Assembly (NCBI GenBank): GCA_965217585.1
Contig: OZ244561.1
Coordinates: 5,376,001 to 5,440,000 of the forward strand
Reading direction: 5' to 3'
DNA from: Candidatus Latescibacterota bacterium
GTDB lineage: Bacteria; Latescibacterota; UBA2968; UBA8231
DNA: 64,000 nucleotides
Position 1 is the stretch's first letter; every line of letters begins with the position of its first letter. Positions 13,465-19,926 of the stretch are shown in pieces. The position numbers and the translations under genes were made by a program. Below the pieces are notes generated by a model. It searched no databases and was not told where the DNA came from. It saw only the letters and a list, made by a program, of their open reading frames with translations.

Positions 13465-16400
13465 CTAGGCGTGCTGCGTCACGGAGAAACGCGAGCCTAA
13501 GTCGGGGTGTTTGGCGACCTCTATTTGCACCGGGAAGGTCGCCTTGAGCTGGTCGAGATGCGTGACGATTAACACCTTTTTGAAATCCTCGCTGATTTTT
13601 TGGATGGCTTCGATGAGTTGCTCCAGCCCCTGCTCATCTTGGGTCCCGAAGCCCTCGTCGATAAAGAGGGTGTGGAGGCGGGTGCCCGAGCGCATGGCCA
13701 GCACCTTGGAAAGCGCGATGCGCAAGGCGAAATTGGTGCGGAATGCCTCGCCCCCAGAATAGAGGTGATAGGAGCGCTCGCCGACCTCGTCGGCGATTTT
13801 GACGTCGAGGGTTTCGCGGGTGCCGCCTTTTTTGAGGTCGCGCAGCGACTCAAAGGCGATTTGGATGCGGTTGTCTGTCAGGCGTGCGAGGATGGCGTTG
13901 GCCTCGTCGGCGATCTGCGGCACGGCGTTTTCAATGATCAGCGCTTGGATCCCATCCTTGCCGAATGCCTTGTCGAGCTGTTGGTAGATCCAGGCCTGTC
14001 GCTGGGTGCCTTGCAGGTCTTGGCGCAACGCGTCCCGTTCCAGCGCTAGTTCGGCGCAGCGCGAGCACAAGGCCTCTAGGTTGCCTCGGCGCTGGAGGAG
14101 TTGATCCCTTTCGACCCGCAGCTTTTCCAAGAGGGCTTGGTTTTCGCCGAGTTGCCTATCGACGTCTTCTAACTCGCCGGCCCGCTTGTCTAATCTTTCC
14201 TGTTCTTTTTTCGCGGCCTGCAATTGTTCCGCTAGAGAGGAGGCTTCGGCCTCGTAGCGCACCCGCGATTCACTGGCCGAAGCACGGCGTTCGCGGGCGT
14301 TTTGCAGGCGCTCGAATTGCCGCGCGCTGTCGCGCAGGTCGTCCTGTTGGTGGCGTAGCTGCTGGTGCTCGGCACCATTGTAACCCAAGGCTGCGAGCTG
14401 GTGCTCGACTTGGCCGAGTTGTTCCCGTTCCTCTTGGGCATAGCGGGCCTCGGCGAGTTGGCGGTCTGCTTGGTCGAGTTGGTTCTGGGCTTCGGCCCGA
14501 TCGCTGTTGAGGCGCTCGGCTTGGCTTTTGGCGTCCTGCAAGCGGGCGTGCTCGGCCTCGACCGGGCGCAACTCGGCGAGCTTTTGGCGCAGCGCCTCGT
14601 GCTCGGCGCTGCTGTAGCCCAATAGCTCTATTTCCCCGGCTAGCTTGTGCAGGCGTTCGCGTTCGCTGGGAGCGTATGATTGGTCGCTGAGTTCGCGGTC
14701 GAGGGCGGCTAGTTGCTCAGCTAGCGACTGGGCCCCAGCGGCCGATTCCCGCAATTGCCCGAGACGAGCTTCCCCGGCGGCCAGTTCTTGATGCACCTGC
14801 TGGAGGGGCGCGATTTCCTCTCCAAGGGCCCTGTAGTGCGTGCGCATCTTTTGCAACAGGTCGTCGAGAGTGGCCAGCTCGCTGCCGAGAACGGCGATGC
14901 GCTCTTGGCGGCGTTCTTCCCGTTGCGAGAGTTCTGCCGCGACCTGCTGGCGATGTTCGGCGTCGAGTGCGCTGCCGCACAATGGGCAATTGGCGTCGTC
15001 GGAACCGGCCAAGGCCTGAGCCTGCTGGCGCTCGTTGGCCAATTCTTCTTCTTCGGCGCGGAGTTTTTGCTGCCGCTCGGTGATCTGGGCATTGAGATCT
15101 CGGCCCTCGTCCTCGAGGCGGTTCCGTTCTTCGACTTTGGCCTGCAATTGGGTCCGTTGCGCTTGCAACTGGTGGATGTGAGCTGCTAGGGTTTCCCCCT
15201 CGGCGCTGGCTCGTTCTAACTGCGCCAATTGCTTGGCTAGTGCTTGGCGCTGGCTTTTGCGGCGCTCTTCTGCGAGAGATAGTTCGTGTTCGAGGCGACG
15301 GCGCTCGCGGAGGAGATCCTCGTAGCGAATCCGCGCCTGCTCTAGGGCTTGGGCCTGCTCGCTAATGGTTTTGAATTGGACGTAGCGGATGGCGATGGTC
15401 TGTTCCCGATTGAGCAAGGCTTGGTGCTCGGCGAGCTGGCGCTGTCGCTCGCCGAGGGTGGCCGCCCAGCGCTCTTGCTGTCGCTCCACTTCTTGGCGCA
15501 CCTGGGCGATTCGCTCTTCTAGCTGGCGGCGGCGGGCCTCTAACTCGCCGTGCTCCTGAGCTTTTTGTTCGATTAGGCCGATTTGAGTGCGAAGCTGGTC
15601 GTAGGTCGCAAAGTCCCGCTCGATGGATTCGGTGGCCGCTAGAATTTCGCCGTCTTGGCGCTGCTGCTCCCGCAGGTTTTCGAGTTCGGCGGAGACCTGT
15701 TGCGCCCGCTCGGCAACGCGCTGCTGCTCCCTCACTAGCTCGGAGACACGCTGGCGGATCTGCGCTAGCTCTAGGCGCTGGGCCTCCAACTCGGCTTGCT
15801 CTTTTTCACGGCTGCTGATTTCGCGGCCGAGTAGAGCGAGGTGATCATCGACGGCGCGCAGCTCGGCTTCGTAGCCTTCTCGCCTAGCCAATTCGGTATC
15901 GAGTTCACCGAGGCGAGTTTGCTGAGCCTCGCTCTGGCGCTGGTGCTCTTGATAGCGGACCCGGGCCATGCCTTGGAGCTGGTCGTAGCGCCCCAAGCCG
16001 AGGATGCGACCGAGTACCTCCTTGCGCTGCCTGGCGTTTTTCTGGGTGAACTCGTCGGCGCGCCCTTGGACGATGAAGGCCGAGTTGACGAAGGTGTCGT
16101 AGTCCATGGATAGGAGCTCGTTGATGCGCCGCTGGGTGGGATTAATGCCCTCGCCTTCGCTGAGAGTGCGGAAGACGCCGTCGCTTTCTACTTGCAGGTC
16201 TAGGGCCGGGACGCCTCGCTTGGTGCGGCGCCAATTGCGGATGACGCGGAAGTGCTTTTCGCCGAGGGCGAAGTCGAAGTCGACCCGCATCTCTCTGGCT
16301 CCGATCCGACACAGTTCTTCGTCGCTGCGGCTTTTGCGAGCTTGGCCCCACAGGGCGTAGGTAATCCCGTCGAGCAGGGCGGATTTGCCGTGGCCGTTGC

Positions 16401-16500
16401 CGCCTGTGAGGCAGGCGACGTGGAACTGGGTAAAGTCGAGTGGTGGCACCTCCTCGCCGTAGCTGAGAAAGTTGCGCAGCGAAAGGGAGAGAGGGATCAT
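13465..16500 (-). CDS. sbcC: SbcC/Rad50 SMC-like ATPase
   Basis: Walker A GGNGHGKS, long coiled coils, zinc hook CPLC, YSGGE signature, Walker B IDEGFGTQD. Confidence 0.92.
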   Translation of the reverse strand: MIPLSLSLRNFLSYGEEVPPLDFTQFHVACLTGGNGHGKSALLDGITYALWGQARKSRSDEELCRIGAREMRVDFDFALGEKHFRVIRNWRRTKRGVPALDLQVESDGVFRTLSEGEGINPTQRRINELLSMDYDTFVNSAFIVQGRADEFTQKNARQRKEVLGRILGLGRYDQLQGMARVRYQEHQRQSEAQQTRLGELDTELARREGYEAELRAVDDHLALLGREISSREKEQAELEAQRLELAQIRQRVSELVREQQRVAERAQQVSAELENLREQQRQDGEILAATESIERDFATYDQLRTQIGLIEQKAQEHGELEARRRQLEERIAQVRQEVERQQERWAATLGERQRQLAEHQALLNREQTIAIRYVQFKTISEQAQALEQARIRYEDLLRERRRLEHELSLAEERRKSQRQALAKQLAQLERASAEGETLAAHIHQLQAQRTQLQAKVEERNRLEDEGRDLNAQITERQQKLRAEEEELANERQQAQALAGSDDANCPLCGSALDAEHRQQVAAELSQREERRQERIAVLGSELATLDDLLQKMRTHYRALGEEIAPLQQVHQELAAGEARLGQLRESAAGAQSLAEQLAALDRELSDQSYAPSERERLHKLAGEIELLGYSSAEHEALRQKLAELRPVEAEHARLQDAKSQAERLNSDRAEAQNQLDQADRQLAEARYAQEEREQLGQVEHQLAALGYNGAEHQQLRHQQDDLRDSARQFERLQNARERRASASESRVRYEAEASSLAEQLQAAKKEQERLDKRAGELEDVDRQLGENQALLEKLRVERDQLLQRRGNLEALCSRCAELALERDALRQDLQGTQRQAWIYQQLDKAFGKDGIQALIIENAVPQIADEANAILARLTDNRIQIAFESLRDLKKGGTRETLDVKIADEVGERSYHLYSGGEAFRTNFALRIALSKVLAMRSGTRLHTLFIDEGFGTQDEQGLEQLIEAIQKISEDFKKVLIVTHLDQLKATFPVQIEVAKHPDLGSRFSVTQHA

Positions 16501-17765
16501 CCGTCGTCTTCGTCGCGTTGGCCAGATTCGAGCTCGCGCTCGAGGTGGAGCGCGTAGTTTTTGAGCTCGGACCGGTGCGTTTGCAGGTCTGGGCTGTTGT
16601 CGATATAGCGGTCGAGGGCGTCGCCTAAGCCGGCCTCCTCGCTGATTTCAGCACGGCGTTGACGCACTTCCGGGGCGAAGCGCGGCTGGATAAAGGCGAC
16701 GTGGAAGGCCGGTTCAAGTGCCTGCCGCACCTGTTGTAAGTCCACCGGCGTGGCGTAGCCTGCGGGCAGGTCGTAGAGGACGCGGACTACGGCGTCTGCC
16801 AGATCGGCCTCGGCGCAGGCCGCGACGAGGCGCTCGGTGGCGTCTTGGCCGTCGAGCACCTTCAGCTTGATGGTCGCAAAGCGCCGGGACGGGACGGGGA
16901 CGAACTCAAAAGTAGTCGCCTGGCCCCTCGGCGCAGTTGCGTCCTCTGCGATACGTACGAGGCAGAAGCCCTTGTCTTCGCCTTCCTCGCCAAAGTCGAT
17001 GCGCTCTAGGCTGCCCGAATAAATCACGGGCGGATGTTGGCCGGGGTTGAGGTCTTGATATTTGTGAATGTGCCCCAAGGCGACATAGTCGTAGGCGGGA
17101 TTGGCAAGGGTGCTGGTGAGCAAAACGGGGTCTTGGCCGATAATAGCGGTGCGTTCGCCCCCAGAATAGACGGCGTCGGCGGCAGCGAGGTGGGCGATGA
17201 GTACGCCCGGCAGCTCGGGGTCGAGCTGCCGGGCGTACTCATCGATCTGGGCTGCGCAGATCTTTTGAATCTCGACGCGGACTTCCTCTAGGGACAGGTC
17301 GCGGTATTCATCGCGGGTGAGTAGGGCATGGCGCGTTGGCCAGGGTAGGCCGGCCACTTGTACCGGGCCATTGGCCGTTTCGATCCGCAGAAGCTCCGGG
17401 CGGCGGATGACATGGGTGCCCTCTAGCTGTAGGGTGCTGAAAATATCGACCGAAGTAGCTTTGCCGAAAGCGCCCGGTGCGTCGTGGTTGCCGACCACCA
17501 GCACGATGGGGATGCGGGCCGCTTGCAGGCGCTGGAGCTGGCGGGCAAAGACGCGCTGGTGGGTCGGGGTCGGATCGCAATTTTTGTACATGTCGCCGGC
17601 GAAGAGGACCAAATCGACCGCCTTTTCAATGGCTAGGTCGAAGACTGCTTCTAGGCTGGCGGCAAAATCTCGAACCCGCGAATGCAGGCCAGAGCTTGGG
17701 TCGAGGCTGCCGTGGTTTTCGATGCCCAAATGCAGATCGGCAAAGTGCAGGAGTGTCAAGGCCAT
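16497..17765 (-). CDS. sbcD: SbcD/Mre11 nuclease
   Basis: ADLHLG, AGD, GNHD, ALGHIH, YSGSLERIDFGE. 4-nt overlap with sbcC. Confidence 0.92.
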   Translation of the reverse strand: MALTLLHFADLHLGIENHGSLDPSSGLHSRVRDFAASLEAVFDLAIEKAVDLVLFAGDMYKNCDPTPTHQRVFARQLQRLQAARIPIVLVVGNHDAPGAFGKATSVDIFSTLQLEGTHVIRRPELLRIETANGPVQVAGLPWPTRHALLTRDEYRDLSLEEVRVEIQKICAAQIDEYARQLDPELPGVLIAHLAAADAVYSGGERTAIIGQDPVLLTSTLANPAYDYVALGHIHKYQDLNPGQHPPVIYSGSLERIDFGEEGEDKGFCLVRIAEDATAPRGQATTFEFVPVPSRRFATIKLKVLDGQDATERLVAACAEADLADAVVRVLYDLPAGYATPVDLQQVRQALEPAFHVAFIQPRFAPEVRQRRAEISEEAGLGDALDRYIDNSPDLQTHRSELKNYALHLERELESGQRDEDDG

Positions 17766-17857: not shown

Positions 17858-17886
17858 TTGCACCTAGACATCGTTTTTAGTACATT
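17858..17886 (+). promoter_or_regulatory. sigma70 promoter (probably the original greA promoter, now reading into the IS)
   Basis: TTGCAC (17858-17863), 17 nt, TACATT (17881-17886). The -10 hexamer lies in the duplicated target site. Confidence 0.6.
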
Positions 17887-17929
17887 AACTGACGTTACGC
17901 ACCTGTATTTATCTTGGTATATTCCCCGT

Positions 17930-18994
17930 ATGGACAAACACCTTTTAGAATTATATAGCGATTATCTGCTCAGTTCGTTTGGCGCGACGACGGCGACCGG
18001 CTTATCGGCACTGGTGGACGGGGCCTTAAGCCATGATCAAGTCACGCGCTTTCTGTCGGGTGCCGACTATGATGGCCGCACGCTGTGGCAGCAGATCAAG
18101 CCGATGGTACGCGAGATCGAGCAGGACGATGGGGTGCTGATCGTCCCCCCGCGTACGCGGGGGCAAGAAAAGCCGCATACGGATGAAAATGACCTGATCT
18201 GTTGGCATTATGATCACAGCCAAAACCGTTCGGTCAAGGGCCTCAACCTGCTCAACTGTGTGTATCATGCCAGCGGGGTGAGTCTGCCGGTGACGTATGA
18301 GTTGATCCGTAAACCCATTCTCTTTAGCGATGTGCAGACTCGTCAGGTCAAGCGCCGGAGTCTGCACACGAAAAATGAGTTGATGCGCCAGATGTTGCGC
18401 ACCTGGCAACATAATCAGCTCCCCTATCGCTACGTGCTGGCCGATAGCTGGTTTTCGGCCAAAGACAACTTAACCTTCATCCGCAAGACCCTCCACAAAC
18501 ACTTCGTCGTCGCCCTTAAATCCAATAGGACGGTCGCCTTGAGCTATGAACAGAAACGTCAAGGAGCCTTCGCACGCATCGACGCACAACCGTTGCCTGA
18601 ACATCAGCCGGTACTCGGCTGGATCAAAGGATTAGACTTTCCCGTCCTGTTGCTCCGGCAGGTCTTTACAAACCAGGATGGCAGCACCGGCACCTTGTAT
18701 CTGGCGTGTAGTGATCAAACGTGTGATGGAGCCACCATCGAAACAATCTACCAGAAACGGTGGAACGTGGAGACGTTTCATAAAACGCTCAAGTCGCATG
18801 CTGCCTTAGCCAAGTCGCCGACCAAGCGGGTACGCACCCAAAGCAACCACTGTTTTATGGCCCTGTATGCGGCCGGTCGCTTGGAGGGCCTGCGGATCAA
18901 GCACCGACTCAATCACTTCGCGCTGCGATCCCGACTCTATCTCAAGGCCATTCGATATGCCTTCGATGAACTACAAACGCTCAAAACTGCGTAA
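17930..18994 (+). CDS. IS701-like DDE transposase, probably inactivated
   Basis: YSDYLLSSF..TATGLS, SHDQVTRFL, EKPHTDEN..CWHYDH, VLADSWF, RWNVETFHK. The first DD motif reads PPRTRG. Stop codon lies inside the right TIR. Confidence 0.85.
   Translation: MDKHLLELYSDYLLSSFGATTATGLSALVDGALSHDQVTRFLSGADYDGRTLWQQIKPMVREIEQDDGVLIVPPRTRGQEKPHTDENDLICWHYDHSQNRSVKGLNLLNCVYHASGVSLPVTYELIRKPILFSDVQTRQVKRRSLHTKNELMRQMLRTWQHNQLPYRYVLADSWFSAKDNLTFIRKTLHKHFVVALKSNRTVALSYEQKRQGAFARIDAQPLPEHQPVLGWIKGLDFPVLLLRQVFTNQDGSTGTLYLACSDQTCDGATIETIYQKRWNVETFHKTLKSHAALAKSPTKRVRTQSNHCFMALYAAGRLEGLRIKHRLNHFALRSRLYLKAIRYAFDELQTLKTA
18146..18163. repeat. Perfect 18-bp palindrome CCCCCGCGTACGCGGGGG inside the transposase
   Basis: Self-reverse-complementary and occupies exactly six codons (PPRTRG). 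Confidence 0.9.
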
Positions 18995-19019
18995 CGTCAG
19001 TACATTAATTTACTTGAGT

Positions 19020-19055
19020 AGCGGAAGCGGTCAGCGCGCTTCCGCTTTTTGTGTT
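19020..19055 (+). terminator. Terminator-like hairpin in the greA leader
   Basis: AGCGGAAGCG / CGCTTCCGCT 10-bp stem followed by TTTTGTGTT. Confidence 0.65.
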
Positions 19056-19094
19056 AAGTAGCACATGTTGTTCTCTCCTGCTTGAGGCTTGGTA

Positions 19095-19565
19095 ATGAGT
19101 GAAGTATATCTTTCGCGAGAAGGCTACGAAAAACTTCAGGTCGAGTTGAAAGGACTCAAGGAGACCGAACGCCCGGCAGTGCGCCAAGCGCTGCAGCGAG
19201 CGCGGGAGTTTGGCGACCTGTCCGAGAACGCCGAGTATTCAGCAGCTAAAGAAAGGTTGCTCTTCCTAGAGCAGCGCATCGGCAAGCTCGAAGAGACACT
19301 CAGCCGGGCCCGCCTGCTAGAAAACGAGGCGATCCCAGAAGACAAGGTCTATATCGGTGCCACCGTAGAGCTAGAGGACCTCGCGAAGGCGCGGCAGCTC
19401 ACGTACACACTAGTCGCACCCGAGGAAGCGGATTTTGAGGCGGGGAAAATTTCCACGGTTTCGCCGATAGGCAGGGGGTTACTAGGGCACGAAGAAGGAG
19501 AAGAAATCGAGATTGAAGTGCCCGTTGGCAAGCTGCACTACAGGATTGTCAAGATCACGCGCTGA
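19095..19565 (+). CDS. greA: Transcription elongation factor GreA
   Basis: AREFGDLSENAEYSAAKE, ISTVSPIGRGLLG. Confidence 0.95.
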   Translation: MSEVYLSREGYEKLQVELKGLKETERPAVRQALQRAREFGDLSENAEYSAAKERLLFLEQRIGKLEETLSRARLLENEAIPEDKVYIGATVELEDLAKARQLTYTLVAPEEADFEAGKISTVSPIGRGLLGHEEGEEIEIEVPVGKLHYRIVKITR

Positions 19566-19717: not shown

Positions 19718-19794
19718 GCGGGAATAGCTCAGTTGGCTAGAGCGCGAGCCTTCCAAGCTCGGGGTCGCGGGTTCGAGTCCCGTTTCCCGCTCCA
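19718..19794 (+). tRNA. tRNA-Gly (TCC)
   Basis: Acceptor GCGGGAA/TTCCCGC, anticodon loop CTTCCAA, GGTTCGAGTCC T-arm, encoded CCA. Confidence 0.97.
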
Positions 19795-19813
19795 GATAGC
19801 CAAAACAATTGCA

Positions 19814-19889
<76 letters not shown>

Positions 19890-19926
19890 CTTTCCTAGTG
19901 CTTCCATCTAAACACGGCAAGTTCTG

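Follow-up and report, generated by a model that had tools for sequence, protein, structure and literature searches.

The stretch of DNA analysed here (64,000 nucleotides, positions 5,376,001 to 5,440,000 of contig OZ244561.1 in the Candidatus Latescibacterota bacterium assembly GCA_965217585.1; called the window in the following) contains an insertion sequence (IS) of the IS701/IS4-like type, in whose transposase gene a short perfect palindrome stands in place of the codons for an invariant DDT motif. The element is 1112 bp long and has intact ends (17889..19000, plus strand), its copies aligning from CTGACGTTACGCA to TGCGTAACGTCAG. These two sequences represent 13-bp terminal inverted repeats, located at 17889..17901 and 18988..19000 on the plus strand as judged from the sequence and the alignment of the copies, the right one overlapping the stop codon of the transposase gene. 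The element is bordered on both sides by an 8-bp target-site duplication, TACATTAA (17881..17888 and 19001..19008), which is directly apparent in the window sequence. The transposase gene (17930..18994, plus strand) is a full-length open reading frame (ORF) for 354 amino acids and is recognized by the Pfam profiles DDE_5 (2.1e-11), DDE_Tnp_1 (6.6e-11), and DDE_Tnp_2 (1.2e-4). The element therefore has the expected domains, inverted repeats, and duplication, and only the invariant DDT motif is gone.

The palindrome, CCCCCGCGTACGCGGGGG, comprises 18 nt (18146..18163) and forms six in-frame codons for PPRTRG, which stand for the 12 nt GATGACACGATC coding for DDTI; the codon-aligned translation across the site reads VLIV-PPRTRG-QEKPHTDEN. 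An exact in-frame palindrome at this position had been claimed in an earlier note on this DNA, and both the window sequence and the reading frame agree with it. Its immediate context is GTGCTGATCGTC-CCCCCGCGTACGCGGGGG-CAAGAAAAG, with a sixth C (18145) directly before the new sequence. A single strand of CCCCCGCGTACGCGGGGG folds into a 7-bp stem with a GTAC loop (-8.8 kcal/mol, compared with -2.2 kcal/mol for the ancestral stretch), and may also be read as a 9-bp stem without a loop.

The residues D73-D74-T75 are invariant in all 20 aligned homologues, and we take one of the aspartates of the DDT motif to be the first catalytic residue of IS4/IS701 transposases. The remaining members of the triad are retained, as the earlier note had stated, namely the aspartate codon of LADSW, presumably the second triad residue (18443..18445, plus strand; D170), and the glutamate codon of VETFHK, which belongs to a YREK-type signature (18770..18772, plus strand; E279), both residues being invariant in alignment A1. 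The only profile match to a PDB entry is weak and involves this last region, positions 267-337 corresponding to 314-383 of Tn5 transposase around the YREK/Glu segment (E ~0.04). The window transposase shares 93% identity along its entire length (100%) with P0001 (352 amino acids), which has DDTI. With the IS ends intact, the reading frame open, and the invariant DDT removed, the transposase is presumably inactive. The insertion itself is polymorphic and young, because contigs from the public runs X1, X3, and X8, which belong to three studies, contain an IS-less joint from 17888 to 19033, with 24 other letters between the two sides.

Replacement of the DDTI codons

The source genome (G000, one contig of 7.32 Mb) contains seven further matches to the window's IS, and all six of the copies which cover the site carry DDTI codons, written as GATGATACGAT(C/T) or GATGACACGATT. 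Matches to this IS occur in 21 of the 31 genomes of a genus survey; twelve of the relatives' copies were fetched and aligned, of which six lie on the opposite strand and are uninformative, and the six readable on the same strand all show GATGA(C/T)ACGAT(C/T), including the copy from G001 (92% identical). The closest allele without the palindrome is found on a 275-nt contig of public run X3, which reads GATGACACGATC and differs by two other substitutions in ~257 flanking bases. The event can be written as a change from GTC-GATGACACGATC-CAAG to GTC-CCCCCGCGTACGCGGGGG-CAAG, with 12 nt lost, 18 nt gained, and the frame preserved. The previous suggestion that about 12 nt had been swapped for 18 is borne out by all three sets of sequences (same-genome copies, relatives' copies, and the X3 contig), and the alignment with the other IS copies defines the replaced bases as a 12-nt stretch of the GATGACACGATC type. 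The flank directly 5' of the new DNA, CTGATCGTC (18137..18145, plus strand), which combines a TGATC motif with the tetranucleotide CGTC (18142-18145), existed beforehand and shows no difference in the X3 contig.

The palindrome is not an assembly artefact, because it is also found in independent public runs, with both arms unchanged in contigs of run X8 (from another study) and the left arm present in run X1, and because a copy in a Uma2-family gene is conserved in a second species, G001. One of the X8 contigs shows the flank type of another palindrome-bearing transposase, P0002 (coding for QAK), beside the unchanged right arm, which is the only support, and an indirect one, at the DNA level for the other PPRTRG-bearing IS copies.

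A view on the homologous transposases shows how often the palindrome recurs. Among the 120 best cluster representatives, 115 have DDT[ITV], one is garbled at this position, and four (P0002, P0003, P0004, and P0079) have PPRTRG, DDT being the native reading of the homologues at this site. The full-length PPRTRG proteins, which are those of the window, P0002, P0003, and P0004, are open over 354-361 amino acids and diverge from each other by 8-11%. In a tree of 46 transposases from which the motif columns had been removed, these four carriers are not grouped; the window protein pairs with P0001 (DDTI; 100/92) and P0003 with P0020 (DDTI; 100/99). This tree requires three changes or more, and an approximately unbiased (AU) test rejects a single clade of carriers (p=6e-5, log-likelihood difference 117). 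In the IS family, at least three separate lineages carry the palindrome at the very same codons, a recurrence which results from either repeated targeting of the site or short-patch gene conversion between IS copies.

The palindrome at other coding sites

The 18-mer occurs three times in G000 (0.0001-0.0006 copies expected from Markov models of orders 1, 3, and 5), its 16-mer core CCCCGCGTACGCGGGG six times (0.003-0.008 expected, same orders), and the 14-mer seven times (0.06-0.11 expected, orders 1-5). The genome-wide count of the 16-mer and the 18-mer shows that the palindrome is not a one-off. All six copies of the 16-mer are single and located within coding sequences, and the window contains only the one at genome position 5394146, in accordance with the earlier note, which had seen no second copy there. 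Among 168 genomes of the phylum, G000 (six copies) and G001 (one copy) are the only carriers of the 16-mer, and a reversed control word is absent from all 168. Every 16-mer copy in G000 replaces target bases, with 8-13 nt lost at four kinds of site, represented by the window's IS, an ISAs1-like transposase gene, a Uma2-family gene, and a TPR gene. The core idea of the earlier note, a short palindrome spreading by replacement, is therefore sustained at three further kinds of site, the mechanism being deduced from the pattern.

In the ISAs1-like transposase gene, CTGATC-TTCGTTGAA-GACGAC has become CTGATC-CCCGCGTACGCGGG-GACGAC, with a net gain of 5 nt and a frameshift in the LDVVFNEDQSRIR region. 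The palindrome is present in three of nine ISAs1-like copies, belonging to two sublineages, and the other six carry TTCGTTGAA. P5471 and P3368 share 99.5% identity and match all the remaining copies at 90-92%, and P5082 is 97% identical to two copies lacking the palindrome. Because the palindrome-bearing copies are located at different loci, each with its own 10-bp target duplication, the defective copies have still moved, presumably with help in trans. An IS-dense spot of the genome (G000:C1:5469993-5474049) contains two tandem ISAs1-like copies, one with and one without the palindrome, and a copy of the window's IS with 87% identity lies 0.4 kb beyond them.

In the Uma2-family (DUF820-like) gene, TGCAAAAAG has been exchanged for CCCGCGTACGCGGGG (+6), so that the sequence reads CTGATCGACC-CCCGCGTACGCGGGG-GCCGC in G000 and in the G001 orthologue, and the protein changes from WLIDLQKGRIEVY to WLIDPRVRGGRIEVY. 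The old form, CTGATCGA(C/T)C-TGCAA(A/G)(A/C)A(G/A)-GCC, is found in all six readable orthologues of other species, five further alignment rows having been excluded as misoriented. In the TPR gene, 9 nt have been exchanged for 18 nt (+9) to give GTGATTGG-18-mer-TCAACG, and both close orthologues retain the old form, reading GTGATCGG-CTTGGCAAG-TCAACG and GTGATGGG-GTTGGTACG-TCAACG, respectively. As seen by direct reading, the 18-mer is free of stop codons in all six frames, and it is translated in three different ones, yielding PPRTRG, PRVRGG, and TPAYAG. The frame-preserving placement which the earlier note had proposed to look for applies to the window's IS, Uma2, and TPR (+6, +6, and +9) and fails in the ISAs1-like gene; the one frameshift (+5) affects an IS, and in the presumably working genes the frame is kept.

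Both junctions of the new DNA coincide with the stem base, and no flanking sequence has been co-converted, not even at targets whose flanks resemble those of the donor. Its length varies by site, amounting to 14, 14-15, 17-18, and 18 nt. All four ancestral sites have (C/G)TGAT(C) on one side of the core, separated from it by 0-5 nt; expressed as the reverse complement, ATCA[GC] lies within 6 nt of 4/4 sites, which corresponds to p=0.022 for a random position and to 2.5e-7 jointly for a motif chosen post hoc. A tetranucleotide [CT]G[TA]C adjoins the new DNA at 4/4 sites (p=0.076 each), in the form of CGTC in the window's IS and the ISAs1-like gene, CGAC in Uma2, and TGAC in TPR. As indicated by the palindrome-less alleles and orthologues, these bases pre-existed in the target at all sites.

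Relationship to CGTC-tagged repeats and the search for a mobilizing enzyme

G000 contains ~30 canonical units of the type (C/T)GTCA-TTCCCGCG-AAAG-CGGGAA-TCCAG, which are repetitive extragenic palindromes (REPs) with a CGTC tag, and the unit at position 177752 has a GTAC loop and hence shares its 14-mer with the palindrome. The stems can be arranged in a series of compensated changes, with TTCCCGCG..CGCGGGAA in the REPs, TCCCCGCG..CGCGGGGA in the ISAs1-like copies, and CCCCCGCG..CGCGGGGG, the corresponding full-length sequences being TTCCCGCGTACGCGGGAA in the REP, TCCCCGCGTACGCGGGGA in ISAs1, and CCCCCGCGTACGCGGGGG in the window's IS, Uma2, and TPR. The palindrome is a compensated-stem variant of the CGTC-tagged REP hairpins (dRS3 type) of G000 and belongs to a very small family whose core CCCGCGTACGCGGG comprises 14-18 nt; the REP-like appearance noticed previously has a concrete counterpart in these units. 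A second mini-hairpin, CGTCA-CCCCGTG-CCCCGA-CACGGGG, is nested in CGTC-1 REPs between AAAG and CGGGAATCCAG and occurs in three copies (G000:C1:5837043, 4085908, and 2965991).

In the available part of the report of Di Nocera et al. (2013; PMC3733652), the CGTC-1 REP family is equated with dRS3 of Neisseria, CGTC REPs are described as having intragenic copies and no dedicated transposase, and their mobility mechanism, as well as whether new copies still arise, is stated as not known; RPE-4 and RPE-6 of Rickettsia are also counted there as CGTC-type repeats, RPE-1 being longer. The palindrome resembles these repeats as a short hairpin rich in GC, whose core is CCCGCG..CGCGGG, as a sequence with copies within genes and no dedicated transposase, and by its tag, for which the family also allows TGTC and CCTC variants: CGTC lies directly 5' in the window and the ISAs1 copies, and CGAC and TGAC are found at Uma2 and TPR. 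In other phyla, moreover, the exact 18-mer lies between the GTCA tag and the TCCAG tail of this family. Several features differ, however, from the CGTC-1 family as far as its description is available. A stem of 8-9 bp with A and T at the first and second positions is expected, whereas the palindrome, a perfect one with a 4-nt GTAC centre, starts with CC..GG (TC..GA in ISAs1) instead of the near-invariable AT; the canonical units in G000 do begin with ATT. Compared with the expected loop of 4-5 nt and CCA tail, the GTAC loop has 4 nt if the stem is taken as 7 bp, and the 3' tails are CAA in the window, CCG in Uma2, CCA in TPR, and GATCAG or ATCAG in ISAs1, depending on where the stem is considered to end. 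The palindrome occurs in six single intragenic copies rather than as mostly extragenic repeats often arranged in head-to-head dimers, its tag and tail are pre-existing target bases rather than imported ones, and a replacement of 8-13 nt is not described for CGTC REPs in the part of PMC3733652 at hand. A literature search also yielded no title or abstract describing REP-type palindromes that arrive by replacement of target bases. Membership in the CGTC-1 family is thus partial, comprising the tag and the lack of a transposase, but not the AT start of the stem or the extragenic, dimeric habit.

A scan of one genome per species found the exact 18-mer at no fewer than 119 loci. Many of these are single matches in high-GC actinomycetes or centres of terminator-like hairpins with A-runs and T-runs in AT-rich genomes, and such occurrences may be due to chance or convergence; spurious long ORFs of high-GC genomes prevail among those spanning the 119 loci listed. 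The 18-mer is multi-copy in one metagenome-assembled genome (MAG) of the Dehalococcoidia and one of the Alphaproteobacteria, is present in several MAGs of the Candidate Phyla Radiation (CPR)/Patescibacteria, and appears in several Proteobacteria as GTCA-18-mer-TCCAG beside ATTCCCGC..GCGGGAAT units. A metagenome scan for GTCCCCCCGCGTACGCGGGGGCA returned three loci, none of which is the window's IS.

Two other classes of palindromic repeats invite comparison, as far as their published descriptions are available. The Rickettsia palindromic elements (RPEs) are likewise palindromic, lie in frame inside protein genes, and are read through without stop codons. They are described as insertions which add residues, whereas the palindrome described here also removes target codons, destroys an invariant motif of an IS rather than extending a surface loop, and has a far lower copy number. 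The REPIN/RAYT systems consist of miniature hairpin repeats (GTAG-tagged REPs) with a conserved unpaired tetranucleotide beside the stem, which are mobilized by Y1 tyrosine transposases and thought to move via single-stranded hairpin intermediates; the palindrome differs from them by a CGTC-like instead of a GTAG tag, by being a single hairpin rather than an inverted REP doublet, and by the lack of a PF01797 gene in G000. A better candidate for the REPIN/RAYT class than the 18-mer is a separate family of 28-nt perfect palindromes of the GTAG-type REP family, GTAGGGGCGACCGGCCGGTCGCCCCTAC, with 39 sites in G000 at up to three mismatches, all with unique flanks and none in the window (including 204152, 216889, and 529853 of G000:C1). 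Three of these palindromes (G000:C1:4487052, 216889, and 3640246) directly abut 11-14-nt fragments of the IS701-like terminal inverted repeat (CTGACGTTAC / GTAACGTCA) without an IS body nearby, and these junctions indicate either that the IS targets the 28-nt palindromes or that the palindrome overwrote IS ends.

A further comparison concerns quasi-palindrome correction by template switching (the Ripley model), in which neighbouring sequence supplies the new bases as its reverse complement. The replacement of a short stretch by one of different length, the perfect hairpin as a product, and the compensated arm changes are all reminiscent of this process. Both arms are new, however, and identical at unrelated loci, and the template, if any, must therefore have been remote. 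A local template switch was rejected, neither arm being present in the ancestral GTC-GATGACACGATC-CAAG.

The search for a mobilizing enzyme was directed at several known types. A Y1/RAYT transposase (PF01797) gave no match in a six-frame search of G000, with positive results for control genomes, and the RAYT/TnpA(Y1) locus suggested in the earlier note was accordingly not recovered. A Y2_Tnp domain (IS91 type) is represented in G000 only by a fragment of 39 positions. Y1/RAYT, type I-E CRISPR, and IS91 systems were consequently rejected as mobilizers, on account of the missing PF01797, the unrelated CRISPR arrays, and the presence of fragments only. Also rejected was a longer element with the arms as its termini, of which the palindrome would be the excision footprint: the 8-nt arm CCCCGCGT was inspected together with 32-40 nt on its inner side, and among the matches listed of its 277 sites, no extension is shared beyond the six known copies.

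An IS110-family element (PF01548, ORF of 360 amino acids) is present outside the window in two copies in G000, which are 99.9% identical (C1:418441-419648 and ~5836213-5837420) and each separate the CGTCA tag of a CGTC-1 REP from its stem, the insertion being exactly at this boundary, as is evident from comparing the interrupted REP dimer at G000 418380-419720 with an intact one at 862560-862700. Behind the element, the stem has CTCCCGCG in the place of TTCCCGCG, and a compensated CT..AG stem is also found in several REPs at other loci. From the insertion of this element at the junction of tag and stem, it follows that a recombinase recognizing that junction is present.

Regarding the neighbourhood of the IS, two long ORFs directly upstream (window 13465-17765, minus strand) code for proteins which we take to be SbcC-like (1011 amino acids) and SbcD-like (422 amino acids), i.e., a nuclease cleaving hairpins and palindromes; their position beside the IS is probably coincidental. 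Downstream of the IS, a GreA-like ORF (19089-19565) is followed by two tRNA-like genes (window 19720-19890), as recognized by reading the sequence.

Possible origin and significance of the palindrome

The reading we prefer, to which we assign a probability of about 0.5, is a cut-and-replace process in which a putative enzyme exchanges segments between a REP and a pseudo-REP site, with the stem base as the boundary. The hairpin core alone would be the mobile unit, and it would be swapped for the short segment of a pseudo-REP site that has tag-like and tail-like flanks, the putative enzyme being structure- or site-specific and cutting at the base of the stem. In-frame outcomes (+6, +6, and +9) would survive in working genes and the +5 frameshift only in an IS. 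Other IS copies would subsequently acquire the patch because their equivalent site is targeted anew or because short-patch gene conversion transfers it between copies. Such a process would explain why target bases are replaced, why the flanks are shared and the boundaries clean, and why the palindrome recurs.

A number of observations weigh against this proposal. The recurrence within the IS family can be explained by ordinary gene conversion, which does not need a site-specific enzyme. As a candidate for such an enzyme, the six-frame search of G000 provided no Y1/RAYT gene and, for Y2_Tnp, no more than the fragment mentioned above. The variable length of the new DNA (14-18 nt) is not predicted for one fixed excised unit, the sites are of no more than four kinds, and the target motifs were chosen with these sites already in view. 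The stem does not start like that of a CGTC-1 REP, and no canonical REP is located in a long ORF of G000, which leaves the intragenic habit as a peculiarity of the palindrome variant. Of ten canonical REP loci that were retrieved, three were searched in five relatives, and the one that was aligned lies in a hypervariable intergenic region and has no clean empty site. Finally, the loss of transposase activity is deduced from conservation of the motif.

The main rival is template switching combined with gene conversion, which appears possible, but less probable than the exchange by an enzyme. In this enzyme-free, microhomology-mediated copy choice, the nascent strand at a stalled fork would copy a remote palindrome (14-18 nt) and return a few bases out of register, and gene conversion would then spread the patch. 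The varying length of the new DNA is well compatible with such a process, as are the 0-3 nt of identity between donor and target at the junctions (e.g., GG and GTC for TPR with the Uma2 copy as donor), the perfect palindromes with compensated arm changes, which fit a hairpin-templated correction, and the failure of the PF01797 search to provide a transposase candidate. The presence of the palindrome in two ISAs1 sublineages and at least three IS701-like lineages, where the flanks are homologous, agrees with the gene conversion step. On the other hand, the microhomology is minimal and amounts to zero at the window's left junction, where the full 18-mer follows GTC. Moreover, the TGAT(C) common to all four unrelated targets is not predicted, and the similar flanks available in Uma2 and the window's IS (GCTGATCG) were not used as junctions.

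A more far-reaching variant, which we consider unlikely, assumes a sequence-targeted overwrite process in this lineage that swaps REP-type hairpins into pseudo-sites defined by TGATC and a CGTC-like flank, with the IS110-family (bridge-type) recombinase of G000, whose element is inserted at the junction of tag and stem, as candidate actor. Because such a pseudo-site lies on the DDT codons, this process would repeatedly and independently produce dead full-length transposases and, if real, would represent a natural way to silence or tame insertion sequences.

End joining after breaks near TGATC-type sites, with a loss of ~10 nt and the capture of an abundant small palindromic duplex or hairpin released from REPs, seems improbable. 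The loss of 8-13 nt, the gain of 14-18 nt, and the nibbled ends have the classic look of filler capture, and the motif shared beside the sites could be that of a nuclease, but a free fragment of this kind has no known source, and identical boundaries in separate IS lineages would hardly be expected unless gene conversion were added.

There is also little probability that PPRTRG is a native, selected form, e.g., a catalytically dead DNA-binding inhibitor of active relatives, in which the palindrome matters for coding or for the fold of the mRNA. The four full-length PPRTRG proteins have indeed stayed open despite their divergence, the change is in frame, and the RNA library X4 contains parts of the IS at 100% identity, its coverage excluding 18108-18283 and thus the palindrome itself. 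Selection of this kind would explain maintenance rather than origin, however, and the same DNA is found in the TPR gene, in the Uma2 gene, and out of frame in the ISAs1-like transposase gene; since the nearest relative of each carrier has DDTI, the frames may have stayed open simply because the change is recent.

The palindrome is very unlikely to derive from a type I-E CRISPR system, be it as a leftover stray repeat or as a by-product of off-target action by Cas1-Cas2. Type I-E repeats have a CCCCGC-N4-GCGGGG stem-loop, which the palindrome shares, and the ISAs1 copies with GTCGT-CCCCGC-GTAC-GCGGGG-ATCAGTCC come close to the complete layout, yet their flanks are ancestral IS sequence and not imported. 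The palindrome is accompanied neither by an array and spacers nor by a type I-E cas operon: its matches in G000 at up to three mismatches are scattered singles, the two CRISPR arrays of the genome, which lie beside two Cas1 genes, have unrelated repeats of 36-37 nt, and the search for a type I-E cas operon in G000 returned for Cas6e (PF08798) only a C-terminal match of 24 residues (24.4 bits). The link to type I-E CRISPR suggested in the earlier note is therefore not supported. The weak Cas6e-like match, which might be cited in favour of such an origin, is located at G000:C1:6774282-6774353, where no array or cas operon was seen.

Chance or a sequencing or assembly artefact can practically be dismissed, for although palindromes break short-read assembly graphs and some public contigs do end inside this one, six copies are observed against 0.003-0.008 expected, the Uma2 copy is shared with the second species G001, the palindrome recurs in independent runs, and three ISAs1 copies are located at different loci with their own 10-bp duplications.

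The palindrome belongs to a known kind, that of intragenic REP-type palindromes, and is unusual in its arrival by replacement at a recurrent site on the conserved motif of a transposase. The pattern suggests that the hairpin alone was transferred and that a short stretch of the target was replaced rather than added to, and the conserved tag may be something that the target has to provide, not a part of the element. For the insertion sequences concerned, this means that they can apparently lose their activity, as deduced from the missing motif, while their reading frame stays open, and for annotation, that repeat DNA can show up as six odd codons within a conserved motif. Very recent events, for which the sequences before and after are available, may open up the question of how CGTC-type REPs move.

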